Assembly (NCBI GenBank): GCA_965231095.1
Contig: OZ246416.1
Coordinates: forward strand, 185,228-249,227
Length of the DNA: 64,000 nucleotides
From: an uncultured Gammaproteobacteria bacterium
GTDB lineage: Bacteria > Patescibacteriota > Patescibacteriia > XYB2-FULL-38-15
Direction of reading: 5' to 3'
A model generated the notes under the pieces. That model searched no databases. It was given only the letters and a program-made list of their open reading frames with translations, and was not told the DNA's origin. The first letter of the stretch is position 1, and each line of letters starts with the position of its first letter. Position numbers and translations under genes: made by a program. Positions 2,995 to 21,952 of this stretch are shown here, piece after piece.

Positions 2995-2998
2995 TTTT

Positions 2999-4069: not shown

Positions 4070-4071
4070 TT

Positions 4072-4737: not shown

Positions 4738-4995
4738 ATTATGGCTTAAAATATTTAAAAATATCTGTTATAATTAATCCGTAGATTCTGTGGTCGAAGA
4801 ATCTGTAACTTATAAAAAACCATAAAAACTATGAGCAAACTCATTAAGGAAATTTTGACCAACAAAGCAGTTCGCAACAGTGGCGCTTTGATGTCGCTTA
4901 TTGTGACCATCATGAGTGTTGGAGTACCTTGGGCTGATAAATAAAATTGCCGCCGAATCGGTACAATTGCGCTCCATGTTAGTGGCCTTAATCCT

Positions 4996-6411
4996 ATGAA
5001 AAGGATCAGTGCTTTTTTATATCAGTTGATCGAACCGCGGTCCCAAACGGACGATCTGCGACGGCGCGAGTTTGTTTTCAATATAATCCTTTCTGCGCTG
5101 ATTGTCCTTTTAATCTTCGCAAATATAGTTACAGTTTCGGAATCCATCCTTCTTGGTTCAACGTATAGAGGGTTATCGCCGCTAATAACAATAATTGTTT
5201 TATCCCTTTTCCTCTTTTTCTTTTATCTATCGCGGAGAGGCTATTTCTATTTAGCGTCCTATTTTTTAATTGGAATAATATTTAGCTTAGCTGCTTACAT
5301 GAGCTTAAAATGGGGCGTTGATTTAGTGGCGTCTCTTCTTTTTTATGCTTTGGCGATTGTCATGGCAGGTATATTACTAAACAAGAGACATATTTTTATT
5401 ACATCATTTGCTGTTGGATGCATGTTAGTGACCGTTGGATATTTTCAAGCGACAAATAAAATTTCACCTAATAGATACTGGACTTCAGAGATGTGGGGTA
5501 TAGCAGAAACTTCTGTCGCTGTAATAATTTTCATGGTCATAGCGACGATTACGTGGCTTTACAATCGGGAGATAGAAAAATCAATCTTAAAACTTAGAAA
5601 ATCGGAAGTAGAATTGAAAGAAGAACGTGACTCTTTGGAGATCAAGGTAGAGCAGAGGACAAAAGAATTAAAAGAAGTTCAGGCGGAAAAGATGACCCAG
5701 TTATATCGATTCGCTGAATTTGGAAGAATTTCCTCCGGACTTTTTCACGACCTTATTAACCCATTGAACGCGGTATCGCTTAACTTGGGAAAGACTGGTG
5801 GCACGCCAGAGGAAACCAAGCAGTATGTAGGTAACGCAGTACGAGCCGCAAAGAAATTGGAGGATTTGGTAGTCGCGGTACGCAAGCAATTAGCGAGAGA
5901 AGAAACGAAAACTTTATTCTTGGCCGATGAGGAGATTGGGCATGTCATCGAGGTTCTTTCCCATAAGGCACAACAGGCCAAGGTTGAACTGAAGTTTATA
6001 CCAGGAAGCGATATCAAAATGTTTGGCGATGCGATAAAATTTAATCAGGTGGTGCTCAATCTTGTTGCCAATGGTATTGATGCTTGCATGCCGCCTACAG
6101 CGGAGCTCGTGCCAATAAGCCCCGGCGATCGATGGGTAGAGATATCTGTCATAGAGGAACCAGAAACCATAATCATGCTCGTGGAAGATAACGGTGTTGG
6201 AATACCAGAACAGCACATGGATAAGATCTTCGAGCCATTTTTTACTACGAAAATAAACGGGCAAGGAATTGGCATCGGACTTTCAATGGCCAAGCGAATC
6301 GTAGAAAAAGACTTTGGAGGTTTGCTCAGTGCTAAGAGTGAAGCAGGTAGAGGATCATCCTTTAAAGTATCTCTGCCCGTGCGTAAACAGGCTACCGAAT
6401 ATGCAGCATAA
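4996..6411 (+). CDS. membrane sensor histidine kinase
   Basis: About 6 N-terminal TM helices, a coiled coil, the H-box FHDLINPLNAV and a HATPase_c domain (N-box LVANGIDA, G1 VEDNGVGIP, G2 GQGIGIGLSMAKRIV). Confidence 0.75.
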   Translation: MKRISAFLYQLIEPRSQTDDLRRREFVFNIILSALIVLLIFANIVTVSESILLGSTYRGLSPLITIIVLSLFLFFFYLSRRGYFYLASYFLIGIIFSLAAYMSLKWGVDLVASLLFYALAIVMAGILLNKRHIFITSFAVGCMLVTVGYFQATNKISPNRYWTSEMWGIAETSVAVIIFMVIATITWLYNREIEKSILKLRKSEVELKEERDSLEIKVEQRTKELKEVQAEKMTQLYRFAEFGRISSGLFHDLINPLNAVSLNLGKTGGTPEETKQYVGNAVRAAKKLEDLVVAVRKQLAREETKTLFLADEEIGHVIEVLSHKAQQAKVELKFIPGSDIKMFGDAIKFNQVVLNLVANGIDACMPPTAELVPISPGDRWVEISVIEEPETIIMLVEDNGVGIPEQHMDKIFEPFFTTKINGQGIGIGLSMAKRIVEKDFGGLLSAKSEAGRGSSFKVSLPVRKQATEYAA

Positions 6412-7768
6412 TCAATTTATCGATAACTTACTTTCAATTGTTGAATCCGGCGAGAGCGTCGGAGGTATAAAGCTGGCGCAGATTGTAAAACACCTCACTG
6501 AGATGGAAGTGGACGAAGGGGGCCCGTATTCCTTGGAACCTAAACAAGGAGCAACTGACGTCGGTCTTAATCTAGCCATCGCTTGTTTTCTGGCGATGCA
6601 GGATATTCGCTTGCCTAAGCTCGATGACTTTTTAGAAAAGCACCTTTCAAATATCGCGGGACCATTCGGCAGCGTCATTGAAGACAAAAAAGTTTGCAAT
6701 CTCATTAATAAATATCAAACACTGATCGGCAATGTGGACAAAGAGGAGCCGGTCAAACAACCGATCGTCTACAACGAGAATGAGCAGCGCATCATGGATA
6801 TGATACGAAAAAAATTTGACGATCGGTTCTCAAACTTTTCTCCGGTACTGCGAGAACGAGCCAAGTCAGCGATTGAAAAGACCATCCGCGGCAACCGGGA
6901 TAAGCAGATGTCACTCATGGCTTATTACACGAAGGTCTCCCTCGGAAAGAGCGGGGAGAGTATTCCCGATGAATTGGTCGCCGACATCGGACTTGCCAAC
7001 ATTTTCTTTTGGACGGCATTTATAATCTATGACGACTTTTGGGATCGAGACGAAGCGGCCGATCCGCGTCTGCTTCCTATCGCTAATATTTTTGCTCGCC
7101 ACTACATAGACTTTTTTATTGCCTTACCCGATGACAAAGAATTCCGCCCGTTCTTCCATGACCTAATGGATAAGCTGGACGGTTCAAACGCCTGGGAAGT
7201 TGAAAACTGTCGTGCCAAAGTCGAGGGAAGCATTTTCCATATTCCAGCAACCCTGCCCGACTTTGGAGACTATGAAAATAAATATCGCCCTGCATCCGGA
7301 CACATCCTTTCCTCGGTTGCTATACTCACGCAATTTGGCAAAGAATTAAAAACTGAAGACTGGGGGAATATCATCTCGTACTTCAAACACTATCTGGTCG
7401 CTATGCAATTGAATGACGACGCTCATGACTGGGAAGAAGATCTGCAGCGCGGGCATTTGAGTACCGTGGTCACGCTTCTTCTCGGTGATCTAAAAAAGAA
7501 CGGGTGGAAAAAACAGACTATCGATCTCAGCACCGATCTACCGGAGATCAGAAAAATATTCTGGTTCACTACTATGCCCCAATACGTGAAAATTGTCCTA
7601 GCCCAAACCGGCACATCACGAAAGGCGCTTCGTTCAATCTCTATAATCGAGGAACCCGATCTCCTTGAGCGCATTATTACAACGACCGAGAACGTGGCCC
7701 GGCAAGCGGAGAGGGAGAGTATTGATTCCAGTGCCCTACTCAAGGAATATACCAATACCCAAGAATAG
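6401..7768 (+). CDS. isoprenoid-synthase-fold (terpenoid synthase superfamily) protein with two DDxxD motifs
   Basis: The ATG at 6401 overlaps the HK stop at 6409-6411. FWTAFIIYDDFWDRDE carries a first DDxxD. About 125 aa downstream, AMQLNDDAHDWEED resembles the prenyltransferase SARM FQ-x-x-DDxxD, or a terpene-synthase NSE-like motif. The listed start at 6314 lies inside the HK gene and was rejected. Confidence 0.4.
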   Translation: MQHNQFIDNLLSIVESGESVGGIKLAQIVKHLTEMEVDEGGPYSLEPKQGATDVGLNLAIACFLAMQDIRLPKLDDFLEKHLSNIAGPFGSVIEDKKVCNLINKYQTLIGNVDKEEPVKQPIVYNENEQRIMDMIRKKFDDRFSNFSPVLRERAKSAIEKTIRGNRDKQMSLMAYYTKVSLGKSGESIPDELVADIGLANIFFWTAFIIYDDFWDRDEAADPRLLPIANIFARHYIDFFIALPDDKEFRPFFHDLMDKLDGSNAWEVENCRAKVEGSIFHIPATLPDFGDYENKYRPASGHILSSVAILTQFGKELKTEDWGNIISYFKHYLVAMQLNDDAHDWEEDLQRGHLSTVVTLLLGDLKKNGWKKQTIDLSTDLPEIRKIFWFTTMPQYVKIVLAQTGTSRKALRSISIIEEPDLLERIITTTENVARQAERESIDSSALLKEYTNTQE

Positions 7769-7962
7769 CCGTAGCGACTAAAAAGGGCTTTAAGGCCCCT
7801 TTTTATTAGCCTTTGTTTGCCATTATTTGGTCCTGTAGCGAGTTTTTTATGCTTCAGCGAGTATTGGGGAGAGGATTTCCACAGGGGGGGAAACTTGCAC
7901 TTGCCGTTATAATCCGTTATAATCCGTCATATAGACTATAACGTTAAAAGTTAAGCCATTTT

Positions 7963-9027
7963 ATGAACGACATTACCCGAAAATTTGATCACCGCATAAA
8001 AAATCCTGATCCGCACATCGTGGCTCTTTTGGCTGAGATCGATGGGATTCGCGGCGAGTTCAAGGGGGGCTTGAGAATGACGCCTCAGGCAATTACCAAT
8101 CTCAAGCGATCAACCCTGATCACTTCTGCCGGTGCATCCACACGTATAGAGGGGGCAAAACTAACCGATGAAAAAGTCGAGGACGTTATGCGTGGCCTCG
8201 CGGTCTCAAAGTTTGCTGATCGTGATTCACAGGAAGTGCAAGGATATCTAGAGACACTTCAAAATGTTTTCGACAGCTTCCAGACCCTACCACTTCGAGA
8301 GGGTGTGATCACTTCTCTTCATAATCAGCTTCTGAAATATTCTCATAAGGATGACACGCACCGTGGCGGTTACAAAAAGACAGAGAACACAGTCGGGGTA
8401 CTTGGGCTAGATGGAAAAATTGCAAAGATTATGTTTGAAACGACACCGGCATTCCTTACTGCAAAGGAAATGCAGGAGCTTGTCGAGTGGACGGAAGATG
8501 CGATGGAAAAGAATCGTTTCCATCAGCTTTTAATCATCGCCAATTTTATTGTTGAGTTTTTGAAGATTCACCCATTTGAAGATGGTAATGGACGTCTTTC
8601 GCGCGTCCTCACAAATCTTTTACTTCTGCGCTCCGGCTACACATTTGTGCAGTATGTCTCGCATGAACAAATTGTTGAGCGTCGCAAGGATGAATATTAC
8701 ATTGCGCTCCGCAAGTCGCAGGAGACGTTTAAAACCGATCACGACACCATTTCGCCGTGGCTGAATTTCTTTTTGTCTGTTGTGCAAGAGCAAGCCAAAA
8801 AAGCACTCTCGTATTTACAGGAGGAAAAAATTGAGGACACTCTTTCTCCTAAGCAGTACGAAGTTTGGAAATATATTTCAAACGTTGGGGAGTCGGGGCC
8901 AGGCGATATCGTTAAAGCAACTGGTATAGCGCTCGGCACTGTCCGTCAAGCGCTTAGGAGTTTGGTCGATCTGGGCAAGATTAAGCGTATCGGCCGCGGC
9001 CGCGGTACGAGGTACGTAAAAATATAA
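7963..9027 (+). CDS. Fic/DOC-family protein (likely AMP-transferase) with C-terminal winged helix
   Basis: Canonical Fic motif HPFEDGNGRLSR. An N-terminal inhibitory-helix motif STRIEG matches (S/T)xxxE(G/N). A C-terminal HTH-like region reads GDIVKATGIALGTVRQALRSL. Confidence 0.8.
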   Translation: MNDITRKFDHRIKNPDPHIVALLAEIDGIRGEFKGGLRMTPQAITNLKRSTLITSAGASTRIEGAKLTDEKVEDVMRGLAVSKFADRDSQEVQGYLETLQNVFDSFQTLPLREGVITSLHNQLLKYSHKDDTHRGGYKKTENTVGVLGLDGKIAKIMFETTPAFLTAKEMQELVEWTEDAMEKNRFHQLLIIANFIVEFLKIHPFEDGNGRLSRVLTNLLLLRSGYTFVQYVSHEQIVERRKDEYYIALRKSQETFKTDHDTISPWLNFFLSVVQEQAKKALSYLQEEKIEDTLSPKQYEVWKYISNVGESGPGDIVKATGIALGTVRQALRSLVDLGKIKRIGRGRGTRYVKI

Positions 9028-9031
9028 TTTT

Positions 9032-9946
9032 ATGGCACTATTCAAAATTAACGGCACGTCCGTCAAAAAAATAACTGCAAAAGACCTCGATCTCGAGAGG
9101 AATTTGCAAGTGCTTTTCGAAGCTAATCTTGACGAATTGCTAAACATCGCTTTTCTTTCTCACGAGTTTCCGACTAGCTTTGGTGGCCGGATTGATACAC
9201 TCGGCATCGACAAAGACGGCGCCCCCTGCATTATTGAATATAAGAAAAATCAGAATGACAGCGTGATTAATCAGGGTCTATCTTATCTCTACTGGTTACT
9301 GGATCACAAGGCTGATTTTGAAAAAATTTGCCAGAATAAAAAAATCGGGATTGAAATCGATTGGGATTCTCCTCGGGTAATTTGCATTGCGGAAAGCTAT
9401 AACAAGTTTGATCTCGACACTGTAAACATTTTGCCCATCAATGTCGAACTGTGGAGGTATCGCATCTATGATGAAAACATACTCTTTTTAGAGCCGGAAA
9501 ATTTTCAAAAGGTCAGGGTATCTACAGCCAATATTGTCAGAAAAAGTAAGCACGATAAAGAAAAGCAGCAAATAATTCAGAAAAACTATTCGGTGGATGA
9601 ACACCTTGAAAAAGCAGGCGAGGATATTAAATCGTTATTTTTTAAATTGCGTGAGAAAATAATCTCTCTTGATACTGAGATTAAAGAAGAGCCACAAAAA
9701 CATTATATTGCCTATAAGCTATCCACTAATTTCGCCGATATTGAAGTCTATCGCAACCAGCTTAAGATTTTTATAAATGTGAAAAGTGGACAACTTGTCG
9801 ATCATGATTCTATTGCCCGGGACATGGAAAATCCGAAACATATCGGTCACCACGGCAACGGTGATTATGAGGTAAGGCTTGAAAGCGAAAATAATTTGGA
9901 CGCGGTATTTTCCCTCATCAAGCAGAGCTACGACGTAAACAAATAA
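9032..9946 (+). CDS. PD-(D/E)xK nuclease-fold protein (304 aa)
   Basis: GRIDTLGIDKDGAPCIIEYKK reads as D ... D ... hhhhEYK in the spacing of a restriction-endonuclease-like core. It starts 5 nt after the Fic stop and ends 10 nt before Mod. Confidence 0.4.
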   Translation: MALFKINGTSVKKITAKDLDLERNLQVLFEANLDELLNIAFLSHEFPTSFGGRIDTLGIDKDGAPCIIEYKKNQNDSVINQGLSYLYWLLDHKADFEKICQNKKIGIEIDWDSPRVICIAESYNKFDLDTVNILPINVELWRYRIYDENILFLEPENFQKVRVSTANIVRKSKHDKEKQQIIQKNYSVDEHLEKAGEDIKSLFFKLREKIISLDTEIKEEPQKHYIAYKLSTNFADIEVYRNQLKIFINVKSGQLVDHDSIARDMENPKHIGHHGNGDYEVRLESENNLDAVFSLIKQSYDVNK

Positions 9947-9956
9947 TTTAAAAATT

Positions 9957-11852
9957 ATGGCAACTAAACCTAAAAAAGTAAATCTCACATCCTCAAATCT
10001 CAGCGAAGAAAAGCTATGGGATCTTCGCCGGATATTGCCGGAAGCTTTTAGTGAAAACAAAATCGACTGGGACAGGTTAAAAACTGTCCTCGGTGATCAC
10101 ATTGATCCTCGAATCGAAAAGTTTGGGTTCTCTTGGGCTGGCAAAAATAATGCACTACAAAGTGTATTAATTCCTAGCGCCGCGACATTAAAGCCCGCAA
10201 CAAAAAAAGGTCTTAAATTTGAGAGTAGTGAGAATCTATTTATTGAAGGAGACAATCTCGAAGTTCTTAAATTGCTACAAAAATCTTATTTTGAAAAGGT
10301 AAAAGTTATTTACATCGATCCACCTTACAACACTGGATCAGACTTCATCTACAAGGATAATTTTTCAACCCCAATTAAGGGATACCTTGAGCAAACAGGT
10401 CAAGTAGACACTGAGGGTCAAAAACTGCAAACCAATCGAGAAACAAACGGACGCTATCATAGCGATTGGCTCTCAATGATGTATCCGAGATTAAAGCTCG
10501 CTTGGAATTTATTGCGCGATGATGGCGCTATGTTCGTTAGTATCGACGATAATGAAGTTCATCATTTGAGGATATTGATGGATGAGATTTTTGGCGAGGA
10601 AAACTTTATTACACAAATAATTTGGGAGAATCGTGAGGGGGGAGGAGGTTCTGATAGTAAAAATTTCAAAATCAAGCATGAATATGTTTTATGTTATGCA
10701 AAGGACGCTGGACAGCTTCAAGTCTTAGGAGAGGAAGTAGAGAATGATGATGATTACACCAATCAAGATGAATACGTAAAGGAGAGAGGAAAATTTAAAC
10801 TCATTAAACTTAACAGCTTCAGCATCCAGTATTCCGCCTCGCTAGATTACCCAATTAAATCTCCTGATGGCACTGATATACATCCAAGCGAAGACGGAAA
10901 GCGGGGATGTTGGAGATGGTCTAAGAAAAAATTTGAATGGGGTGTGCAGAGTGGGTTTATTGAATTTAAGAAAAATGGAAATGGTAAATGGATTGTATAT
11001 ACCAAACAATACTTTAAGGTTGATAATGAAAACCAGCCGATAACCAGAACACTTCCTCCATTGGCTGTGATCCAAGAATATTCGAGTACGATGGCCACAA
11101 AACAAATGGAGGCCATATTCGGAAAAAAGAAAATATTCGATTATTCAAAACCATACCCACTGATAAAAAAACTTGTCCGTTTTGTGTCTAAAAAAAGTAG
11201 TGATGATATCATTCTCGACTTTTTTGCTGGATCAGCTACTACGGGACATGCAGTACTATCGCTTAACCAAGACGACGGTGGACATCGCAAATTTGTCCTT
11301 GTTCAGCTTCCGGAATTAATTGATGTGAAATCAGAGGCATATAAATCAGGCTACCGAACAATTACTGAAATTGGTATTGATCGATTAAAAAAGGTCATAA
11401 AAGGCTATGGCGAAAATTCTCCAATTGACGATGGGTTTAAAGTATTCGAATTAGGTAACTCTAACTATCCAGAGAATAATTTTGACTTTGATCCAGATAA
11501 GAGTGAGCAAGAAAATAAAAAGGCATTTGAAGCATATCTTGCAAAAGCAAAGCAGGCTTCTTTATTCGATGCCGAGAATGGCATTGATGTTGTTTATGAA
11601 AACATCGTAAAAGAAGGCTTGTCCCTAAATGCAAAAGTGACAGAGCAGAAGCTCGGTAAAAATAAAGTGTATGTGGTCACTGATGGCGAACGGTCACTGT
11701 TGGTTTGCTTAGACAAGAAGGTCGAGTCGGAGACGATCAAAGAACTTACTAGCCACGAATACAAAGATCGGATATTTATCTGCATCGATAAAGCTCTAGA
11801 TGACACTGGCAAGGCAAATCTTGGCCTCAATCTTGAGCTAAAAACAATCTAA
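9957..11852 (+). CDS. mod: Type III restriction-modification methyltransferase (Mod), N6-adenine
   Basis: Motif IV DPPYNT. Region SIDDNEVHHLRILMDEIFGEENF is typical of Type III Mod. Motif I is FFAGSATTGHAV. A central variable TRD-like region is present. Confidence 0.75.
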   Translation: MATKPKKVNLTSSNLSEEKLWDLRRILPEAFSENKIDWDRLKTVLGDHIDPRIEKFGFSWAGKNNALQSVLIPSAATLKPATKKGLKFESSENLFIEGDNLEVLKLLQKSYFEKVKVIYIDPPYNTGSDFIYKDNFSTPIKGYLEQTGQVDTEGQKLQTNRETNGRYHSDWLSMMYPRLKLAWNLLRDDGAMFVSIDDNEVHHLRILMDEIFGEENFITQIIWENREGGGGSDSKNFKIKHEYVLCYAKDAGQLQVLGEEVENDDDYTNQDEYVKERGKFKLIKLNSFSIQYSASLDYPIKSPDGTDIHPSEDGKRGCWRWSKKKFEWGVQSGFIEFKKNGNGKWIVYTKQYFKVDNENQPITRTLPPLAVIQEYSSTMATKQMEAIFGKKKIFDYSKPYPLIKKLVRFVSKKSSDDIILDFFAGSATTGHAVLSLNQDDGGHRKFVLVQLPELIDVKSEAYKSGYRTITEIGIDRLKKVIKGYGENSPIDDGFKVFELGNSNYPENNFDFDPDKSEQENKKAFEAYLAKAKQASLFDAENGIDVVYENIVKEGLSLNAKVTEQKLGKNKVYVVTDGERSLLVCLDKKVESETIKELTSHEYKDRIFICIDKALDDTGKANLGLNLELKTI

Positions 11853-11856
11853 AGTT

Positions 11857-14466
11857 ATGAAGTTAAAATTCGACGCAAATCAAGAATACCAAATCGATGC
11901 AATCAGCGCCGCTGTTGATCTATTCGAAGGTCAGGATAAAAGCGCAAGTAAAATGTTTGCGGGCAATGGACTGCTAGGAATCTACCCAAACATTCTTTCC
12001 CTCTCTAAAGATGATATTTTGGCTAACTGCAGCAGGGTGCAAGAGCACAACAAAACCAAAAATGGAGATGGAACATCCGACTTCGACTTCTCAATCGAAA
12101 TGGAAACCGGAACCGGTAAAACCTACGTCTATCTCCGCACTGTCTTTGAGTTGAATAAAAAATACGGCTGGAAAAAATTTATTGTGTTGGTGCCGTCCGT
12201 TGCTATACGAGAAGGGGTTATTAAGACACTTAACATCACCAAAGACCATTTCGCTGATCTTTACGATAATACGCCGTACCGTTTTTATGAATATCAGTCC
12301 AAGAATATTTCCCAGGTAAAGCACTTTGCCGACAGTTCCAACATCGAGATAATGGTCATGACTATCGGCGCTTTTAATAAAGACACTAACGTACTGTATA
12401 GCGAACGTGACCAGATGCATGGTGAACAGCCGATCAGCTATATCCAAAAGACCAATCCTATTTTAATCCTGGACGAACCGCAGAACATGGAAGGCGAGGC
12501 TACAAAAAAAGCTCTCGACAATTTCAATTCACTTTTCCGCCTACGCTACTCGGCGACCCACCGGAATGTTTATAACCTCATTTACCAACTCGCACCGTAT
12601 GACGCATATCAGATGGGTTTGGTAAAGAAGATCGAGGTCTTTTCAGTAGTGGATGACGATAATGCAACATCCGCGCCATTGCTTAATCTCATCGAAGTGA
12701 AGCCAAGCAAAACCGCAATTAAGGCCCAGATCGAGGTCATCGTAAAAGACGATCAGGGTAATGGCAAAAAGAAAAAAATAAGTGTTAAGCAAGGCGATGA
12801 TCTTGCGAAGAAAACTGAGAACTCAGCCTACGATGGCTACATTGTCGACGAGCTTACTGCGGACGCTCCGGACTTCGGTTCAATCGGTTCCGTGCGCTTC
12901 CGAAACAATGTTCAGGTCAAACAAGGCGAAGGCATCGGTGGCAACAGGCAAGATGTCATGAAAGAACAGATTGCCGAGACTATTAAGCTCCATTTTGAGA
13001 AGAAAAAGAAACTGAAGGAGGTGGGCATCAAAGTTTTATCCCTGTTTTTTATCGATCGCGTAGACAACTATGTCCGGGATGACGGTTTTATACGGCAAAC
13101 ATTTATTCAGCAGTTCAATACTCTTAAAAAAGAATACGGCGAAAGCAACACTGATGTGAGCAAGGTTCACAAAGGCTACTTCGCCATGAAGAATGCCACA
13201 GAGTACATCGAACGCGAATCTGCTATTGCGGAAAACAAGGAGGCATACGAGCTGATCATGAAAGATAAAGAGCGATTGCTTTCCTTTGATGAAGCGACTG
13301 AATTTATTTTCTCGCACTCGGCCCTCAAGGAAGGCTGGGACAATCCTAATATTTTTAACATCTGCACTCTCAATCTGACTTCCTCAACTATGAAAAAGAG
13401 ACAAGAGATAGGTCGTGGTATGCGACTTTGCGTGGATCAATCAGGTGAGCGCATCTTTCTTAAAAACATAAACCTATTGTCGGTCATCGCAAACGAAAGC
13501 TATTCCAGCTATGTGGCGGGCTTACAATCAGAGTTTGTCGAGGATGGCATATACAAAGCACCTCCTGTTCCAAATAATGCCAAGAGCAAAGTTACCGTAA
13601 AGCTCAAAAAGGGATTCGATAAAGATGAAAATTTCCAGGCAATTTGGGATCGTATCTCTAAAAAAACTAAATACGTTGTTCGCGTAAACGCTGATCGCGT
13701 CATTGAAAAAACATCCAAGCGCATTGGGGAGCTTCGGGTCTCAAAGCCACAGATCAAAATTGAGCGGGCTGGCATATCCATTGCGAAGGAAGGTATCGGT
13801 GCGAGCATCATCGGTGGCCAGTCTCAGGAGATGACCCAAACTCGCCGTATGATCGACTGTGTGGAATCCATTAAAAACGAAACCAAGCTGACCCGTGAGA
13901 CTGTCGCCACGATCCTGCAAAAGTCTGATAACTTCAAGTCCCTAGCAAATAATCCTGATCGATTCACTTACGAGACAATCAAGATCATCCGCGAGGAATT
14001 GGTCCGGGATTACGTGGAGCAGATCGCTTATGAAGTGATGCCGGAAAAATACGACGTTAGCCAATTCGAGAATATCCTAAGCTATAAAGATGTGACCCAA
14101 CCGGTTAATCGTTCAATTTACGATGCGATAGTTTACGACTCTGAAGTGGAGCAAAAGTTTGCCGTTGATCTCGATCAGGACGAGCGTATCAAATTATTTA
14201 TAAAGCTTCCTGGATGGTTCAAGATTGAGACGCCGGTCGGTGGCTATAATCCCGATTGGGCAATTGTTACTGCTAAGCGGGATCTGCGCGGTAAGGAAGA
14301 TACAGAGAAGGTCTATTTCGTAATTGAGACTAAGGGCGGGACGAATCTGCGCTCATCCGAACGCGCCAAGATCGACTCGGCAAAAAAGCACTTTGAGGTG
14401 ATCTCAGTTAATTACAAAGAGATCAATAGCGGGTATGAACAGTTCAAGCAAGAATGTATGAATTAA
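11857..14466 (+). CDS. res: Type III restriction enzyme Res subunit (SF2 helicase plus C-terminal PD-(D/E)xK)
   Basis: Motif I TGTGKTY (Walker A, METGTGKTYVYL). Walker B / DEAH-like ILILDEPQNM. Motif VI QEIGRGMRL. C-terminal nuclease motifs YNPDWAIV and FVIETKG. It starts 5 nt after the Mod stop. Confidence 0.75.
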   Translation: MKLKFDANQEYQIDAISAAVDLFEGQDKSASKMFAGNGLLGIYPNILSLSKDDILANCSRVQEHNKTKNGDGTSDFDFSIEMETGTGKTYVYLRTVFELNKKYGWKKFIVLVPSVAIREGVIKTLNITKDHFADLYDNTPYRFYEYQSKNISQVKHFADSSNIEIMVMTIGAFNKDTNVLYSERDQMHGEQPISYIQKTNPILILDEPQNMEGEATKKALDNFNSLFRLRYSATHRNVYNLIYQLAPYDAYQMGLVKKIEVFSVVDDDNATSAPLLNLIEVKPSKTAIKAQIEVIVKDDQGNGKKKKISVKQGDDLAKKTENSAYDGYIVDELTADAPDFGSIGSVRFRNNVQVKQGEGIGGNRQDVMKEQIAETIKLHFEKKKKLKEVGIKVLSLFFIDRVDNYVRDDGFIRQTFIQQFNTLKKEYGESNTDVSKVHKGYFAMKNATEYIERESAIAENKEAYELIMKDKERLLSFDEATEFIFSHSALKEGWDNPNIFNICTLNLTSSTMKKRQEIGRGMRLCVDQSGERIFLKNINLLSVIANESYSSYVAGLQSEFVEDGIYKAPPVPNNAKSKVTVKLKKGFDKDENFQAIWDRISKKTKYVVRVNADRVIEKTSKRIGELRVSKPQIKIERAGISIAKEGIGASIIGGQSQEMTQTRRMIDCVESIKNETKLTRETVATILQKSDNFKSLANNPDRFTYETIKIIREELVRDYVEQIAYEVMPEKYDVSQFENILSYKDVTQPVNRSIYDAIVYDSEVEQKFAVDLDQDERIKLFIKLPGWFKIETPVGGYNPDWAIVTAKRDLRGKEDTEKVYFVIETKGGTNLRSSERAKIDSAKKHFEVISVNYKEINSGYEQFKQECMN

Positions 14467-14470
14467 AAAT

Positions 14471-15454
14471 ATGAAAAATACTTTATACAAAACTGGCTTG
14501 GGGCAATATATTCTAGGGGACTCTCAAAAACTTATTGAGAGCGGTTCTCTTGATCAGTATAAAAACAAAGTCCAACTGATCTTATTCTCTCCACCCTTCC
14601 CCTTAAACGCAAAAAAGAAATATGGCAACAAGCTCGGAAAGGAATACAAAAAATGGTTGGCCGACCTTGCGCCACTATTTACGAAGCTATTAAAAAAAGA
14701 CGGCTCGATCGTAGTAGAGCTGGGCAATGCATGGGAACCTAAGCGGCCGGTCCAAGCCTTACTTTCTCTTGAATCGCTGATCGCATTTTTGAATAACCCT
14801 AAAGCAGACTTGCGCCTGTGCCAGGAATTTATTTGCTATAACCCTTCACGACTCCCATCTCCAGCCCAATGGGTTACCATCAACCGAATCCGTACGATCG
14901 ATAGCTATACGCATGTCTGGTGGATGGCAAAATCTGATTTTCCAAAAGCAGATAACCGCAAAGTTCTTAGACCCTACAGCAAGAGCATGATCCAGCTATT
15001 AAAACGCAAGAGCTATAATTCGGGTAAACGACCATCACAACATAGTATCAGCGAAAAAGGTTTCCTTACTGACAATAAAGGTAGCATTATGCATAACGTG
15101 CTCGAGTTGGAACAGATGGATGAGCAGAGAGAGATGAGGTTGCCACAAAATATGTTTAGTTTTGCAAATACCAACTCAAACGACTTTTTCTCAATACAGT
15201 GCCGCGAAAAGAACATACCAATACATCCGGCACGAATGCCAACCTCGCTCGCAACATTTTTTATAGAATTCCTGACAGACCCAGGTGACATAGTCTTCGA
15301 TCCCTTTGCCGGGACGAACACCACTGGATACTGTGCGGAAAAATTAAAAAGAAAATGGCTCGCGGTAGAAATTGACAAGGATTACGGGAAACAGTCGATT
15401 ATCAGATTCAAAGAGCCAAAACTTACTAAAACATTAACTATTAAAAAAATATGA
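14471..15454 (+). CDS. beta-class N4/N6 DNA methyltransferase (SPPF motif; likely m4C)
   Basis: Motif IV ILFSPPFPLN precedes motif I VFDPFAGTNTTG, which is the beta-class order. The SPPF/SPPY form is commoner in N4-cytosine MTases, so the m4C call is an inference. It starts 5 nt after the Res stop. Confidence 0.7.
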   Translation: MKNTLYKTGLGQYILGDSQKLIESGSLDQYKNKVQLILFSPPFPLNAKKKYGNKLGKEYKKWLADLAPLFTKLLKKDGSIVVELGNAWEPKRPVQALLSLESLIAFLNNPKADLRLCQEFICYNPSRLPSPAQWVTINRIRTIDSYTHVWWMAKSDFPKADNRKVLRPYSKSMIQLLKRKSYNSGKRPSQHSISEKGFLTDNKGSIMHNVLELEQMDEQREMRLPQNMFSFANTNSNDFFSIQCREKNIPIHPARMPTSLATFFIEFLTDPGDIVFDPFAGTNTTGYCAEKLKRKWLAVEIDKDYGKQSIIRFKEPKLTKTLTIKKI

Positions 15455-17439
15455 GCACCAAATCAGTTATCAAAAATCTAGCTTCCGTGGATATCCTGAC
15501 TGAGGCGAAAAACGCCGATGCTCTTATTGGGCGTCCCTTTTACTTGGACTACGAAAAAGCCTGTGTTCTTGTACCAGACGCGTGGAAAATGAAAGTCGGC
15601 GGAATACCGCAGGGTACATTCCTGCTTGCTTTCTACGAGAACGATGAAGGTATCTCCGAGGCGTTGCTTTTAAGAGCGCTCGGCCCGAAGGGTCTGCCCA
15701 CCGATAATGACGTGACAAGTTCGATGATCGAGTACTACAAGGACAACCTGAAAACAGCCGATGTCAAAGGTACTCAGCTCGACGACTTCACTCGTTACCA
15801 CTTCAGTTTTTCAGGACTTGAGTGTCGTATCCTGGGGACTTTTTACAAGGATAAGTCGGGGACGGTAATTTTTGGAGCAGACCTTGAAAACTTCTACAGT
15901 GCCCACAACTATACGGTCTACAAGCCATCTGGCAAAGTCCTCGAGCAAATTGTTAACTACAAGGATTTGAATGAGGTCGCTGGTGGGGTGAGCGATGTGA
16001 AGATCGGAAATGTTCGCTACAGTTCAAGTCTGCGTTTTCAGGATGGTATCGAAAAAGTTCCCGTTTACATTAGCCCCAAGGACTTTATCGGCAAGCGGAC
16101 TGCTCTGTTCGGTATGACTCGTACCGGGAAGTCGAACACAGTAAAGAAGATCATTGAAGCAACAGTTGAGATTAGCCAGAAAGCGAAAAAGGAAAATGGC
16201 AAAGACGCGGGCACTGATCCCTTTACGAAGTCGGGTCTAACAAAAGAACCAATTGGCCAAATTATATTCGACATCAACGGAGAATACGCAAATGCGAACT
16301 TGCAGGACGACGGCACGGCGATATTTGAGATGTATAAAGACGACGTTGTTCGTTACAGCCTGCTAGAAAAGCCGGGTTTCAAGGTGATGAAGACAAACTT
16401 CTTTGACGACATCGATGCCGGTTTCGAATTGCTATGCTCGTTGCTGGCGATGGATGATGCACGCTTTGTTTCAAACTTCCGATCTATCGATCTGACTGTC
16501 CCGCAAGAACTGGAAGATGATCCGAGCTTCAAAGTAAGGCATGCACGCCGGGTGGCGGCGTATAAGTGTTGCTTGCACCAAGCTGGATTCAAGCACAAAG
16601 ACACAACTATTAAATTCTCTGGAGAAGCGACTCTCAATACTCTAGCCAGCGGAATTGATCCGTCAAAGGGCATCACATACGACCAAGCCGTGAACTGGTT
16701 TACGGCGGTATGGGAGGCTACCGGAGAAAATGCCTTTTTTGAGGACTATAAAAAGAAACACGAAGGACGCGAGTGGGCTGACGAAGACTTAAAAGCTCTT
16801 CTCGTTATGCTCACACGCAAGCGCAGTCCTGGCTCTGACAAAGGTGCAGACTGTAGTGGGTTTAGAGTATTTAAACCAGCGTTGAATTTGCACACCGAAA
16901 GTGTCGACAAACCCTACGCAATTGAAATTCTAGAAACCTTGAGAGCGGGGAAGATCGTCATTGCTGACTTGTCGCAGGGCAATCCTGAAATAATTCAGCT
17001 CTACTCGGAGAAGATTTGTCAGCGAGTATTTGCTGATGCAATGAATAACTTTATTGGTGCGAAAAGCAATAATTTTATTCAGATGTATTTCGAAGAGGCT
17101 CACAATCTATTCCCAAAACAGACAGATAAAGACCTCAGTAAAATATATAATCGCTTGGCGAAAGAGGGAGCAAAGCTCCACCTCGGCATTGTCTATGCCA
17201 CCCAAGAGGTAAGCTCCATCAGCTCCAACATCCTCAAAAATACTCAGAACTGGTTTATCGCTCACCTCAACAACGAAGACGAGCTGAAAGAACTTAAAAA
17301 GTATTATGACTTTACCGACTTCACTACCGGTCTCACTAGATTCAGCCCCAACACGGACAAGGGCTTTGTTCGAATGAAAACGTATTCCAATCCATTCGTA
17401 GTTCCGGTTCAGATAGATCGGTTTACGGCAAAAAAATAA
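15451..17439 (+). CDS. HerA/FtsK-superfamily (DUF87-like) ATPase
   Basis: N-terminal beta-rich region, then Walker A ALFGMTRTGKSNT followed by FDINGEY. Walker B is GKIVIADLSQ. A sensor-like HLGIVYATQE follows. It overlaps the MTase stop by 4 nt. Confidence 0.55.
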   Translation: MSTKSVIKNLASVDILTEAKNADALIGRPFYLDYEKACVLVPDAWKMKVGGIPQGTFLLAFYENDEGISEALLLRALGPKGLPTDNDVTSSMIEYYKDNLKTADVKGTQLDDFTRYHFSFSGLECRILGTFYKDKSGTVIFGADLENFYSAHNYTVYKPSGKVLEQIVNYKDLNEVAGGVSDVKIGNVRYSSSLRFQDGIEKVPVYISPKDFIGKRTALFGMTRTGKSNTVKKIIEATVEISQKAKKENGKDAGTDPFTKSGLTKEPIGQIIFDINGEYANANLQDDGTAIFEMYKDDVVRYSLLEKPGFKVMKTNFFDDIDAGFELLCSLLAMDDARFVSNFRSIDLTVPQELEDDPSFKVRHARRVAAYKCCLHQAGFKHKDTTIKFSGEATLNTLASGIDPSKGITYDQAVNWFTAVWEATGENAFFEDYKKKHEGREWADEDLKALLVMLTRKRSPGSDKGADCSGFRVFKPALNLHTESVDKPYAIEILETLRAGKIVIADLSQGNPEIIQLYSEKICQRVFADAMNNFIGAKSNNFIQMYFEEAHNLFPKQTDKDLSKIYNRLAKEGAKLHLGIVYATQEVSSISSNILKNTQNWFIAHLNNEDELKELKKYYDFTDFTTGLTRFSPNTDKGFVRMKTYSNPFVVPVQIDRFTAKK

Positions 17440-17442
17440 CCT

Positions 17443-18801
17443 ATGTCTTACACAAGTCGAGACGGTCGAAGACCGAATGAATACGCCAGCAAATCATCCC
17501 ACGGATATATTATCCGTGATCCGGAAGTTTCTGAATTTCTGGACAAATGCAATCTGCCAAAAGCGGCAGAGGATGTTGAGGTGCCTGCAAACCTTCAATT
17601 CGATTTGGAGCCGCCAGAAAATAATCCAATAAAGCACATCATCGCCGTTGATGGTGGTCGCTCCGAGGTATTTGTAAGAAAAGACTTCCCATCCTCCACG
17701 CTTACATTCTTTCAGTTTGGGGCATTATTTTTCAAAACTGAAGACCTTGAAGCTATATCAAAAAAGGCATTCATCGATCCGGAAGATATGGCCAAGCTCA
17801 ATACCATTGAAAGGTATAAATTGGCTTTGCCGACAAAAAATATCTTGCTAAAGGATGCCGCGTCTTTCAAAGAATCGTTTCGAAAATCATTGTTTGATTT
17901 CTTTATGAAGGGGTCAAGCGGTGAGACTTTCGCGGAGACGTTGCGCTGGCTAATTTTCCAAGAGTTTGACGCCCCACTGGATGAATATAATCTTTCTACA
18001 TGCCCCAACTGCGCTGCGGGCAATATACCTTTAGGCGTAAAAATAAAAAAGACCGAGTTTTCTTATCAATGCCCTCACTGCAAAAAGGAAATATACATCA
18101 CGGACATTTTTCGCTTACACGAAGCTATCGATGACGAACTTGGCGCCGGTGGGGTTTTAGGGTATGTGAATGTGCTGATCGAGCAGATCATCATCGTTTA
18201 TTTAATCAAGGCAATTTTAGAAACAAAGCCAGCGATTCTAAGCGAAACACTTTTTATAAAAGACGGTCCACTTGCGTTCTTTGGCCAGACAGCCAACATG
18301 CAAAAACCATTGAGACATTTGACCACTTTCCTTTCGGAAAAACACAATCTGTTCTTGGCTGGTTTAGAAAAAAGCGGGCCTTTCGTTGAGCATGCGGACG
18401 AGATCGGAAAAAAATTGAAGCCTGGAACTATCCTGCTTCTGGACAACACCTATATTTACAAATATATCTTGCCTGGCAAGGTCGACAACACTGCGCCGTA
18501 CGCTCGGAGCTCTTATTATAGCGGTAAGATGATCTTCAAGTCGGCGGATGGAAAAATTTATGTTGTAACTATCCCTACCAAGAATGCCGACGTAGTCTTG
18601 GCTCCCAAGAAAAGTGATTTCCATAATTTAGACGCGATCCTGACTAATATCCAGAAATTGCGTTGTGATATGTACGATAATTCACTTTTCCCAGTTGCGC
18701 TCGCTAATAAACTTGTTTCCCTTGCTAACCACCCCAGCTCGGCAATCCTCGAAAAGTTTGCAAAAAAGACTATTGGCAAAACAGTCACGCCTCGCATATA
18801 A
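17443..18801 (+). CDS. NurA-like nuclease (RNase H-like fold) with inserted zinc ribbon
   Basis: IIAVDGGRSEV matches NurA motif I (hhAhDGS). FIKDGPLAF matches the NurA hhDGsL motif. Acidic FVEHADE follows. Zinc ribbon CPNC...(22 aa)...CPHC. It starts 4 nt after the HerA-like stop. Confidence 0.45.
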   Translation: MSYTSRDGRRPNEYASKSSHGYIIRDPEVSEFLDKCNLPKAAEDVEVPANLQFDLEPPENNPIKHIIAVDGGRSEVFVRKDFPSSTLTFFQFGALFFKTEDLEAISKKAFIDPEDMAKLNTIERYKLALPTKNILLKDAASFKESFRKSLFDFFMKGSSGETFAETLRWLIFQEFDAPLDEYNLSTCPNCAAGNIPLGVKIKKTEFSYQCPHCKKEIYITDIFRLHEAIDDELGAGGVLGYVNVLIEQIIIVYLIKAILETKPAILSETLFIKDGPLAFFGQTANMQKPLRHLTTFLSEKHNLFLAGLEKSGPFVEHADEIGKKLKPGTILLLDNTYIYKYILPGKVDNTAPYARSSYYSGKMIFKSADGKIYVVTIPTKNADVVLAPKKSDFHNLDAILTNIQKLRCDMYDNSLFPVALANKLVSLANHPSSAILEKFAKKTIGKTVTPRI

Positions 18802-18805
18802 ACCT

Positions 18806-19558
18806 ATGTCGGAATACTACACATCACAACGAGTTAAAGGTTTATACGATCCGGCATCGTCAGAGCCTTTTAAACTGTCACGATCAAAGATTGACCTCTC
18901 TTTGGATTGCCCCCGTTGTTTTTACTACGATCGCAAACTTGGAGTCGGCCGACCCCCTGGCTTTCCGTTCGCTTTAAACTCTGCCGTCGATCATCTCTTA
19001 AAAGCTGAATTCGATATCCATCGTGCCAATGGTACGAAGCACCCTCTTATTGAGAAGTACGGAGTTGATGCACGTCCGATCCCTCATGAGCAATTGGAAA
19101 AATGGCGGCATAATTTTACCGGTATCCAGTATCTGCATCCGGAGACAAACTTTTTGGTATTCGGTGCGATTGATGATCTTTGGCAAAGTCCGCAGGGTGA
19201 ATATATCGTCGTCGATTATAAGGCGACTTCCAAAGCCGAGGACATCACAGAACTAAATAAAGAATGGCAGAACGGATATAAACGTCAGATGGAGGTGTAC
19301 CAGTGGTTGCTCCGCAAAAACGGATTGAAGGTTTCCAGTACTGGCTACTTTGTCTACTGCAACGGCAAGTCAGATCGAACGGCGTTCGATGCAAAGCTCG
19401 ACTTCGACATCACGCTAATTCCTTACATCGGAGATGATTCGTGGGTAGAAAAAGCCCTCATAGATGCTCACAAGTGTCTCAATGGCGATACAATCCCGAC
19501 AGGTAAACCAGGCTGTGATTATTGTGAGTATGTCGAGGCGATATGCAAATATAAGTAG
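18806..19558 (+). CDS. Cas4/RecB-family (DUF83-like) PD-(D/E)xK nuclease with Cys cluster
   Basis: N-terminal CPRC. Motif II FGAIDDLW. Motif III YIVVDYKA. A QxxxY-like MEVYQWLL. C-terminal C-x2-C-x6-C (CDYCEYVEAIC). The ATG at 18806 is 5 nt after the NurA-like stop. The ORF from 18665 lies inside the upstream gene and was rejected. Confidence 0.5.
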   Translation: MSEYYTSQRVKGLYDPASSEPFKLSRSKIDLSLDCPRCFYYDRKLGVGRPPGFPFALNSAVDHLLKAEFDIHRANGTKHPLIEKYGVDARPIPHEQLEKWRHNFTGIQYLHPETNFLVFGAIDDLWQSPQGEYIVVDYKATSKAEDITELNKEWQNGYKRQMEVYQWLLRKNGLKVSSTGYFVYCNGKSDRTAFDAKLDFDITLIPYIGDDSWVEKALIDAHKCLNGDTIPTGKPGCDYCEYVEAICKYK

Positions 19559-19663
19559 TTATCAACCCCGCTTTAGATATGTTCAAAACCATGATTAATT
19601 GATAAAATACAGTTACAATTGAATGTGCCTAAACCCGTCAGCCTGCTGATTGGCATGGCATTT

Positions 19664-19710
19664 AATCCATCCAAGGTATAGAACCCGTCGTCAGGGTTCC
19701 TTGGATGGTT
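19664..19710 (+). other. 48-nt nested stem-loop in a non-coding leader
   Basis: AATCCATCCAAGG pairs with CCTTGGATGGTT (outer, ~12 bp). AACCC pairs with GGGTT (inner, 5 bp) around loop gtcgtca. Confidence 0.5.
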
Positions 19711-19806
19711 GCATAGGGAAACTTATGCATTCGGGCCGAAAGGTTCGAGCTCCTGGCGGCGGGCTTTATGCGAGCCGGTCCGAAATTATACACAGCGCCC
19801 CTTCTT

Positions 19807-19840
19807 GTGCTGATTTTTCAAACTGTGCTATAATTAATTC
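19807..19840 (+). promoter_or_regulatory. sigma70-like promoter with extended -10 (TTGTGC-N18-TGcTATAAT)
   Basis: A perfect TATAAT is preceded by TGc (extended -10). A 4/6 -35 TTGTGC lies 18 nt upstream. It points rightwards toward the portal gene. Confidence 0.3.
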
Positions 19841-20028
19841 AACAGAAAGCGATTGCCTGACGGCGTCCGGGTTTACCGGGCTAAACGAGACGGGGCTACG
19901 ACTTCTGTCATCAACAGCTATTTTATTATGGCTGGTGTGATGACGAGAAGTGGTAGTCCCGCTTTTTGTTTATCCTCTTGAGGCTTCGGCCTCGCATTGA
20001 ACCGACAGGAACCAGATTGGAAATAATT

Positions 20029-20063
20029 GAGCCGAGCCTTAACAGGGTCTCGGCTTATTTTAT
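20029..20063 (+). terminator. intrinsic terminator-like hairpin immediately upstream of the portal start
   Basis: agccgag(cc) ... (gg)gtctcggct gives 7+2 bp, followed by TTATTTTATTT. It lies between the promoter above and the ATG at 20069. Confidence 0.35.
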
Positions 20064-20068
20064 TTCCT

Positions 20069-21952
20069 ATGGCGGAAGCAACATCAACCCAAAAAATCAA
20101 AGAGGAAGAAACTTCTAAAAAAGAAGTGTATTCGCCATCGGCCGACGAGCAGGCGCTCATTGAAAAATGGAAAAAGCGATTTACGCGTTCCGAAGAATAT
20201 CTTCGTCCTTATCGGGCAAAGTGGCTTCGCATGTATAAGCACTACCGGGCCTATCAGGAAAAAACAAATTATGCGTACCAGACCCGGCTCATGCCTCCGA
20301 TTGCATTTCAGATCGTGGAAACAGTGGCCTCGCGTCTTGCAACTGCTAAACGAAAGACGCGCATTCTTCCGCGAGACAAAAAAGATACTGAATCAAAATC
20401 TATTGGTGCTTGGAATGATCTTGTTGGCTATGACTTTGACGTTATTAAACTGTCGAAAAAACTTCCCAAGTGGGTAAAGGCCGCTTCTACATATGGGAAT
20501 GGAATCGGCATGCTGACCTGGCTTACCGACGAAAGCATTGATCACGATGACCCATTCCTAACCATCTGCGACCTGTGGGACATTTTGCCTGCTCCTGAAA
20601 CTGAAGACCTAGAAGATGATTGTCCTTGGCTTATCCGCCGTATTTTGAAATCAAAAGACAAAATTGAGCGCGAAGAAAAAGCCCGCGGCGAAAACGTACT
20701 TTATAAAAATGTGAATTTCCTCGAAGCAAAACAAGTCGAGGATTGGAAGAAGGAGCGATACGAAGTGAACACCAAAAAGATGGGCCAGATTCAAAGTTCA
20801 GAATCGGTGGAAACTTCCAGCTCAGTAATTAAAGTCACTGGAGAAAAATATGAACCGGAAAAACAGATCGAATTGTGGGAGTGTTACGACTTTGAAGAAG
20901 GAAAATTGATCACTCTCGGCAACCGCGAAGTGCTGATGCGCGACGACGAGAATCCATACAAGAAAGTAAACCACGGCCGCATCTTCCTGAACTTGGCGGA
21001 TCACGAAGTCAACTGGGAACTTTGGGGTATTGGCCACATCGAGCCAGTTGAAACGACCATTGTTGAAATTGCAGATCTCCGCAATCAGCGCATGGACGAC
21101 GTCATTCTAATGCTTGATCCGGTAATTAAGATTCGCAAAGACTCCGGCATTTCAAAAAACGACATCATTTTTGCACCCGGTGCAAAGTGGGAGCTTCGCA
21201 AGATGGATGATGTAGTCGTCGAACGATTGCCGGACATCAGCCTCATGGGAGTGAACGAAGAAAGAGCCTTGCGTGATGAGATCGAGCGGACGCTTGCTAT
21301 CTCTGAATATGCCCAAGGCATGCCAAAGTCTTCCGATGAACCGCTCGGCAAAGTAGCCATGCTTATCGGCCAGAGCAACCTGCGTTTAAGTTCTTTTTCC
21401 CAAAATTTAGCCGAGACGCTCAGCAGCCTCGCTAACATGCTGATAGAGATGAACCAGGAATTTATCGAGGAAGACAAATTGTATCGCGTAATCGGCGACG
21501 AGGTGAGCTTTAAGGAATTCACAATGGCAGACAAAGAAGTAAAGGTCGATGCCGTGGTGACGGTTGATCCGGTCGTGCCTCCCGATCAGCAGGCCCGGCT
21601 CAATCAGTCTTTGCTCCTGTACGACAAGTTTGTGGCACAGGACAAACCTGATCCGAACAGTCCCGATGAAATCAAACAGTGGAAAAAACGAAAGCGTGCG
21701 ATTCAGGAAATGATCCTCGAAGAAATGGGCAAAGAGGCGTATCGAGTCGTAATTCTCGGCGAAGAAAAAAACGAAACCACTCAAGGTAAAGAGCCGGTGA
21801 TTCAGCCGGGAGAACCTCCGCCCATATCGGAAGCAGGTGCTCCACCGGACGCATTACCACCGCCAACTCCGCAAGCGCGTCCTGGCTTCTTGAGAAGCGT
21901 GCTGTCGAGAATTCCTTTTATCGGTCGAGGTCAAAAAACAATTAATCAATAA
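20069..21952 (+). CDS. phage portal (head-to-tail connector) protein, candidate
   Basis: About 630 aa, acidic, with no Walker A. It is the first gene of a module followed by a scaffold-like protein and a capsid. The start is set at the second ATG because the first ATG (20027) sits inside the terminator hairpin. Confidence 0.45.
   Translation: MAEATSTQKIKEEETSKKEVYSPSADEQALIEKWKKRFTRSEEYLRPYRAKWLRMYKHYRAYQEKTNYAYQTRLMPPIAFQIVETVASRLATAKRKTRILPRDKKDTESKSIGAWNDLVGYDFDVIKLSKKLPKWVKAASTYGNGIGMLTWLTDESIDHDDPFLTICDLWDILPAPETEDLEDDCPWLIRRILKSKDKIEREEKARGENVLYKNVNFLEAKQVEDWKKERYEVNTKKMGQIQSSESVETSSSVIKVTGEKYEPEKQIELWECYDFEEGKLITLGNREVLMRDDENPYKKVNHGRIFLNLADHEVNWELWGIGHIEPVETTIVEIADLRNQRMDDVILMLDPVIKIRKDSGISKNDIIFAPGAKWELRKMDDVVVERLPDISLMGVNEERALRDEIERTLAISEYAQGMPKSSDEPLGKVAMLIGQSNLRLSSFSQNLAETLSSLANMLIEMNQEFIEEDKLYRVIGDEVSFKEFTMADKEVKVDAVVTVDPVVPPDQQARLNQSLLLYDKFVAQDKPDPNSPDEIKQWKKRKRAIQEMILEEMGKEAYRVVILGEEKNETTQGKEPVIQPGEPPPISEAGAPPDALPPPTPQARPGFLRSVLSRIPFIGRGQKTINQ

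Follow-up and report, generated by a model that had tools for sequence, protein, structure and literature searches.

The eight tightly packed genes at positions 7963-19558 of the 64,000-nucleotide (nt) stretch of contig OZ246416.1 analysed here (hereafter the window) probably belong to an 11.7-kb mobile prophage cassette of a Patescibacteria (candidate phyla radiation, CPR) host, which stacks separate anti-phage modules between conserved end genes. We regard the cluster as a prophage defence cassette, and its most interesting content is a trio of genes for a DNA methylase, a HerA-family ATPase and a NurA-family nuclease, which looks like a candidate defence system related to Tdp restriction, widespread and as yet without a name. 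The original prediction, made from the letters of the window, had taken the eight genes as one probable operon and possibly a single composite system. All eight open reading frames lie on the plus strand at exactly the coordinates it gave, and the Fic protein, the Mod methylase with its DPPY motif, the Res protein, the SPPF methylase and the HerA ATPase are what it had named them. The cassette comprises the following features:

about 7847-19573, plus strand: the cassette (promoter, eight genes and a short tail), with limits from blastn against the related locus L090
7895-7943, plus strand: promoter/operator-like region, with TTGCAC (7895-7900), 17 nt and TATAAT (7918-7923)
7963-9027, plus strand: Fic-domain protein with a C-terminal winged helix-turn-helix (wHTH) domain; Pfam Fic (PF02661) 2.8e-15, DIP2311-like_C; PADLOC SoFic 3e-42
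9032-9946, plus strand: DUF5655 protein, PADLOC candidate PDC-S18 (2e-96)
9957-11852, plus strand: Type III Mod methylase, DPPY at residue 121; PADLOC MTase_III 4e-180; Pfam N6_N4_Mtase
11857-14466, plus strand: Type III Res, superfamily 2 (SF2) helicase with a C-terminal endonuclease; PADLOC REase_III 2e-241
14471-15454, plus strand: M.PvuII-like N4-cytosine (m4C) methylase, SPPF at residue 40; PDB 1boo (M.PvuII) 1e-59 over the full length
15451-17439, plus strand: HerA-family ATPase; Pfam DUF87; Walker A GMTRTGKS at residue 221
17443-18801, plus strand: NurA-family nuclease with a Zn-ribbon insert, from the NurA-family matches of its homologues and an AlphaFold model
18806-19558, plus strand: Cas4-like PD-(D/E)xK nuclease with four Cys; Pfam PDDEXK_1 1.5e-14; CxxC at residues 35 and 237

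Judging from sequence, the methylase, HerA and NurA genes form an autonomous restriction-modification (R-M)-like module. The comparison covered about 170 related loci, with a NurA-side set of 80 species-level loci (from Patescibacteria, Chloroflexota, Cyanobacteria, Bacteroidota, Bacillota, Planctomycetota, Acidobacteriota, Actinomycetota, Deinococcota, Spirochaetota, Gammaproteobacteria and one methanogen) and a Cas4-like-side set of 80 loci, kept from more than 580 metagenomic homologues. The three genes are contiguous in at least 54 of the 80 NurA loci, spread over many bacterial phyla and an archaeon; in the remaining loci the set is cut by a contig end or frameshifted, or a helix-turn-helix (HTH) gene stands in for the methylase (Nostoc and a few others). 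The identities of the trio proteins to those of the window co-vary (r = 0.73-0.84). Between very distant phyla the trio keeps 50-92% identity, and its genes are still together at 25-33% identity in a Deferribacter megaplasmid and a Vibrio temperate phage; since the HerA-NurA pair is so highly conserved across unrelated phyla, it appears to have been transferred horizontally. The annotated neighbours in the 80 loci are defence or mobility genes, those of the trio being HNH-ATPase pairs, AbiE-like pairs, a UvrD-nuclease, GmrSD and serine recombinases; no recurring neighbour besides the methylase was seen in this set, in which most neighbours carry no annotation. Type III-like Mod/Res pairs, counted up to a distance of 10 kb, occur near the trio in 11 of the 80 loci, and belong to several non-orthologous families in various orientations. 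The place of the SPPF methylase is thus with HerA and NurA, and not as a stray second methylase of the cluster.

The seventh gene itself gave no match in Pfam, NCBIfam, PADLOC or PHROGs, and a profile search against the sequences of the PDB was likewise empty. More than 2,000 homologues share 56-92% identity with it, and 18 of 41 aligned homologues match the NurA family (PF09376). Its AlphaFold model (predicted local distance difference test, pLDDT, 79.7) retrieved only NurA-type structures in Foldseek, with TdpB first (8wfd_G, 2e-7; template modelling (TM) scores 0.44/0.54, 13% identity) and the NurA proteins of Deinococcus radiodurans, Thermococcus kodakarensis and Pyrococcus furiosus after it. 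As its homologues reach the NurA family and its predicted structure matches NurA, we assign the gene to this family. The Zn-ribbon insert has CPNC at residue 187 and CPHC at residue 210; Cys 187, 210 and 213 are invariant across the aligned homologues, as are the DGG and KDGPL motifs. For the HerA protein, phmmer against the PDB gave TdpA (8wet_A) at 2.9e-18 in a match spanning 160 residues, and the next HerA at 1.3e-8. No PADLOC model matches NurA and the HerA models match weakly (1e-20 or worse), and no methylase-HerA-NurA system was described in the full-text literature searched, which left out Iyer et al. 2004 and the Tdp paper.

Within the trio, the HerA identities to the window fall into classes (96-97% in L006, L066, L083-86 and L090-91; 72-75% in L002-5, L082 and L087-89) that do not follow methylase and NurA identity (82-96%), a pattern which suggests recombination inside the trio. 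In Deferribacter desulfuricans pDF308 (L175, 1907-8380), the trio HerA gene is split by an IS200/IS605 insertion (tnpA, tnpB). The Vibrio phage 10N.286.55.C4_PE001 (PQ189371; L176, 1309-5750) has genes for HerA and NurA and, on the opposite strand, for a Type II methylase, all placed between integrase and excisionase; the phage is cultured and temperate, its record flags the methylase alone as defence, and it would make a convenient experimental handle. A recurring three-gene set adjoins the trio in four loci from distant phyla (L051, L077, L038 and L043), and encodes a UvrD-helicase/PD-(D/E)xK protein of about 900 amino acids, a Type III-like Mod and a Res-like protein that ends in a TnsA-like endonuclease, the last of which had no PADLOC match in these loci.

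The modules are exchanged between sister cassettes, in which the genes are arranged as follows:

L083-L086: Fic-RadC-trio, without the Type III pair and without the Cas4-like gene
L087: Fic-RadC-Mod-Res-trio-Cas4-like
L090: Fic-Mod-Res-trio-Cas4-like
L003: Fic-RadC-PDC-S11-Mod-Res-trio-Cas4-like
L082: AbiEii-Mod-Res-Ymh-trio
L006, L088, L092 and L093: trio alone

The conserved ends of the cassette are Fic on the 5' side, which is the first gene in 20 clustered loci and is sometimes followed by RadC, and the Cas4-like gene on the 3' side. The Mod and Res genes of the window and of L087 belong to one family (A), and elsewhere families B and E are found or the pair is missing. Many of the Cas4-like loci share the frame Fic-(RadC)-Mod-Res-slot-Cas4-like with gaps of 3-5 nt, the slot being filled by SIR2 with HerA (PADLOC 2e-63 and 1e-175; L102, for example), a type VI retron (HTH_VI 1e-17, RT_VI 1.5e-63), PDC-S06 (8e-177), a Ppl-like ATPase, an AriA-like ATPase, a DUF2254 protein with a partner or, in the window, the methylase-HerA-NurA trio. 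Because the trio sits where stand-alone systems sit, we read it as a defence system of its own and not as a part of a fused eight-gene machine. The suggestion of a composite or fused system is not supported, given the presence of the trio alone in most genomes, its close relatives that lack the Type III pair and the other systems that take its slot. The comparison of co-occurrence proposed along with that suggestion shows the Type III pair and the trio to be separable, and the two are not literally always independent, as a minority of loci hold both.

The grouping of HerA, NurA and Cas4 into one module fails from both sides, the Cas4-like gene lying 3' of NurA in only 3 of the 80 NurA loci and the trio being carried by only 2 of the 80 Cas4-like loci. 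The Cas4-like gene, with 70-99% identity across its more than 580 metagenomic matches, closes the cassette as its conserved 3' gene and is no specific partner of HerA and NurA. It scores below the threshold of the Cas4 family (TIGR00372 cas4, 32.9 bits against a 65-bit cut-off), and general family searches found no other cas family among the annotated proteins. In regard to CRISPR, Tandem Repeats Finder gave one AT-rich repeat (63614-63658), a tool that misses interspaced repeats, and no dedicated array scan was made.

The other genes of the block are of more familiar kinds. The DPPY Mod gene lies directly 5' of Res, on the same strand and with a 4-nt gap, and Res joins an SF2 helicase core to a C-terminal endonuclease (Pfam ResIII 1.6e-16, DEAD, RE_endonuc 4e-34), as is standard for Type III R-M. 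Between the window (9957-14466) and L087 (2477-7027), Res is 90% and Mod 57% identical, a contrast that would be expected if the target-recognition domain of Mod had been swapped. In the Fic protein the motif HPFEDGNGR is intact at residue 203, in agreement with the SoFic pattern HxFx(D/E)GNGRxxR, and the score against the characterised SoFic equivalog (NCBIfam NF046030) is 48.6 bits for a cut-off of 550. The second gene (PDC-S18) occupies a variable slot, L003 having RadC and PDC-S11/DUF4268 in its place. It had been called a PD-(D/E)xK nuclease, a putative identity suggested by a motif-like D55...E69-Y-K71; the single-sequence AlphaFold model has a pLDDT of 39 and is unusable, and searches of Pfam (at a lax threshold), the PDB and PHROGs returned nothing for the N-terminal half.

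That the cassette behaves as one unit is seen in its inversion relative to L090, with which the window aligns by blastn in four segments:

96-7846: L090 20152-12324, reverse
7893-9025: L090 1004-2147, forward
14461-19560: L090 7019-12109, forward
19574-20547: L090 967-3, reverse

The segment between the two forward matches (9026-14460; PDC-S18, Mod and Res) has no nucleotide match in L090, where there is a different Mod/Res pair. Since the flanks match in reverse and the cassette ends match forward, the cassette has been inverted as a block between the same flanks, one of which carries a YceG gene, a response regulator, a histidine kinase and a 455-amino acid gene, and the other a LOOT RNA and the portal gene. 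The same end genes also enclose a cassette in a different phage backbone. The inversion junctions in the window and L090 lack repeats of 8 nt or more, whether inverted or direct, and a site-specific inversion by an invertase is unsupported at such repeat-free junctions.

The surroundings of the cassette are those of a phage. A portal/adaptor protein, a major head protein and an amidase are encoded 3' of the block, sister loci carry a terminase, a CI-like S24 repressor, a serine recombinase and a tRNA, and the contig of L007 (Candidatus Doudnabacteria) begins inside a NurA gene 100% identical to that of the window and continues with the same phage genes. From these genes and the L007 match we conclude that the region is a temperate phage or prophage of a CPR bacterium; among named records, a Candidatus Doudnabacteria genome comes closest.

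In regard to transcription, the 194-nt region 5' of Fic and its tandem repeat are both real. The repeat unit of 10 nt, CCGTTATAAT, is present in two perfect copies (7904-7923), followed by a degenerate third copy and by an inverted copy, GACTATAACG, at 7934-7943. The pattern CTTG...TATAATC...TATAATC...ATATA is kept 5' of Fic in five elements (the window, L083, L085, L087 and L090), irrespective of the genes downstream. The putative -35 element agrees with the consensus at 3 of 6 positions, and a consensus promoter scan did not list the site; the region would act as a promoter to judge from its sequence and conservation. Between 6000 and 22000, the 29 promoter-like sites compare with 28.5 in shuffled sequence, and the 22 terminator-like sites with 16.9 +/- 4.1. 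The gaps between the eight genes are 4, 10, 4, 4, -4, 3 and 4 nt, with junctions that mostly read TAA-N3/4-ATG (ATGA at the overlap) and without a clear Shine-Dalgarno sequence at any of the seven. This row of seven short gaps is the longest in the window. However, gaps of 10 nt or less make up 20 of the 43 same-strand gaps in the window (46%), so that packing alone is weak evidence, and co-orientation says little since the plus strand holds nearly every gene in the window. The single transcription unit of the original prediction stands as far as the block is a unit and a plausible operon, given the conserved promoter-like region, the inversion of the whole block and the background frequency of promoter- and terminator-like sites. 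One promoter for the whole block is plausible, and the eight genes are probably co-transcribed.

Among known systems, the closest to the trio is TdpABC. As cited in PMC12914056 and PMC13223576, Tdp is a phosphorothioate-based R-M system in which TdpC modifies DNA and TdpAB restricts, and TdpABC from thermophiles was reported by An et al. 2025 (Nat Chem Biol). Like Tdp, the trio brings together an enzyme that modifies DNA, an ATPase of the HerA type and a nuclease of the NurA type. In the comparison with the TdpAB structures (8wet, 8wfd), TdpA is the best sequence match to the HerA of the window among solved structures, by ten orders of magnitude, and TdpB is the best structural match to its NurA. 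The modification gene, in contrast, is an M.PvuII-like m4C methylase and not TdpC, family searches of the eight genes found no DndC/TdpC-like domain, and the NurA of the window is about 90 residues longer, with the Zn-ribbon insert. The HerA-NurA end-resection complexes of archaea and Deinococcus share the two families, their adjacent genes, the NurA fold and its acidic motifs, and HerA-NurA complexes act on DNA ends and degrade double-stranded DNA (PMC12977600). They differ from the pair in the window, which is tied to a methylase and found on mobile elements among defence genes, and family searches of the eight genes gave no match to Mre11/Rad50.

SIR2-HerA and DUF4297-HerA are similar in joining a HerA ATPase to an effector, and SIR2-HerA occupies the same cassette slot in L102, whereas the effector in the window is NurA and a methylase is present. 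The third and fourth genes are a standard Mod-Res pair of the EcoP15I-like Type III kind, and what is notable is not this ordinary pair itself but its packaging inside the cassette. In the P2/P4-type hotspots of temperate phages and their satellites, conserved flanking genes enclose variable defence cargo in prophages. The window differs in that the two end genes of its cassette (Fic and Cas4-like) travel with the cargo, are inverted along with it and stand behind the same putative promoter, and because of this we count both as cassette genes and not as phage backbone.

Under the cassette reading, the genes would be transcribed from one conserved promoter 5' of Fic. The first module, a SoFic-like Fic-wHTH protein, may be a regulator acting on the repeated TATAAT-containing operator; it would be followed by the single-gene candidate PDC-S18 and by the classical Type III R-M pair. 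In the fourth module, the R-M-like trio, the m4C methylase would mark and protect resident DNA, and by analogy with Tdp the TdpA-like HerA hexamer would thread unmarked DNA into the TdpB-like NurA dimer for degradation. The Cas4-like nuclease would close the cassette as the fifth module. Type III cleavage followed by HerA-NurA degradation of the ends could take place as a bonus of this arrangement and would not be its obligate design. A bolder version, which we put forward tentatively, would make the Fic...Cas4-like frame a dedicated mobile defence carrier of CPR phages, in which the Fic-wHTH protein reads the shared promoter/operator, R-M holds a near-constant position, a free slot accepts any system, the terminal Cas4-like nuclease serves the system upstream of it and the trio is an unnamed, methylation-based counterpart of Tdp across bacteria and archaea.

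The alternative of a true composite machine, in which Type III Res cuts unmodified DNA, HerA-NurA and a Cas4-like exonuclease load on the ends and destroy the genome, and the eight genes are selected together, we consider unlikely. It would account for the tight packing and the shared promoter, agrees with the action of HerA-NurA complexes on DNA ends (PMC12977600), and gains from the Type III-like pairs beside the trio in 11 of the 80 loci, which come from at least four non-orthologous Mod/Res families, and from the close clade, where the Cas4-like gene occurs only in cassettes with a Type III pair. However, in 69 of the 80 loci no Type III pair lies within 10 kb of the trio, L083-L086 combine Fic, RadC and the trio without one, and in otherwise identical cassettes the slot of the trio holds SIR2-HerA, a retron, PDC-S06 or the Ppl-like ATPase; moreover, the trio has a methylase of its own, for which an accessory that only processes DNA ends would have no use. 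The block could also be an ordinary defence island of a compact genome, brought together by chance and with no character of a unit, as might be argued from the share of short gaps in the window and from the nearly uniform orientation of its genes. This is extremely improbable, being contradicted by the block inverted whole between conserved flanks, by the same end genes in a second phage backbone and by the one conserved promoter region that is kept.

Phages commonly carry methylases, and the cluster could also be a kit for phage offence or self-protection, its methylases shielding phage DNA while HerA-NurA and the Cas4-like nuclease degrade host DNA or aid recombination and replication. The cassette does lie within phage-like DNA beside portal and capsid genes, a D12-class methylase adjoins it in L083 and L087, and the Cas4-like gene is as conserved as a phage core gene would be. 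Even so this is a very unlikely explanation, since a CI-like repressor and a recombinase make the elements look temperate, neither Fic nor a complete Type III Res is an anti-restriction tool, and the trio mostly occurs on chromosomes and plasmids, away from phage genes and beside AbiE-like, GmrSD, HNH-ATPase and recombinase genes. A NurA-profile scan of 2.9 million viral contigs likewise gave no confirmed match to the trio with the patterns used.

Several observations weigh against the cassette reading with its autonomous trio. The likeness to TdpAB is distant, NurA having 13% identity and TM scores of 0.44/0.54, and HerA aligning over its C-terminal 160 residues only. The HerA-NurA pairs with an HTH gene and no adjacent methylase, in Nostoc and others, fit the R-M logic less well. 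The Type III-like pairs near the trio in 11 of the 80 loci are often on the same strand and directly adjacent, and all close-clade cassettes with the Cas4-like gene have a Type III pair; given this adjacency and co-occurrence, some functional cooperation between the Type III pair and the trio is possible. Promoters may also lie hidden inside the coding regions, and both the operon and the anti-phage function are putative. The inversion junctions have no repeats that would suggest a way for the cassette to move.

The trio is a clear and testable candidate for a new defence system, with its company of defence genes, its place in a slot of validated systems and its TdpAB-related effectors. If methylation does gate HerA-NurA, the pair would be a general restriction module that can be coupled to different DNA marks. 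The cassette also shows phages of the ultra-small CPR bacteria packaging and exchanging immune systems as one invertible unit with, presumably, a single promoter. For annotation, the lesson is that tight packing and a shared promoter do not imply a composite system.

The original prediction had closed the unit with a structured leader of about 500 nt and a terminator, and both the structure and the hairpin are there, though they are not members of the unit. The region of about 510 nt 3' of the block is strongly structured (folding z = -8.7) and contains these features:

19626-19747: Rfam LOOT RNA, 75.9 bits
19793-19812: terminator-like hairpin, 3' of the LOOT RNA

The LOOT RNA (about 76 bits) lies directly 5' of the phage portal gene in three related CPR prophages, and it keeps with the portal gene in L090 (793-915, minus strand) and L007 (1847-1967), in either orientation of the cassette. 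Being next to the portal gene whatever the orientation, the structured region is phage backbone and lies outside the operon, which rules it out as the terminator or leader of the latter. A second long hairpin with a U-run is found at about 19880-19970.

On the other side of the cassette, the YceG-like gene, the OmpR-type response regulator, the histidine kinase and the 455-amino acid gene are at 2999-7768 (12390-17257 in L090). They lie between the terminase side of the phage and the portal gene, and the two-component system appears to be phage cargo in the lineage of the window. A small, very acidic open reading frame (50-56 amino acids) follows the Cas4-like gene in L090 (12118-12288) and L087 (12130-12282) and is absent from the window. 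In the last part of the window (about 40000-64000), the composition shifts near 40 kb, the G+C content falling to about 0.41 and the GC skew rising from about 0 to +0.2, and this change may mark a boundary between the prophage and other DNA; a tRNA-Ser is found at 50943-51029. Finally, a 1266-amino acid protein at 32647-36447 matches phrog_9854 (1.7e-63), whose members are very large phage proteins without a known function.

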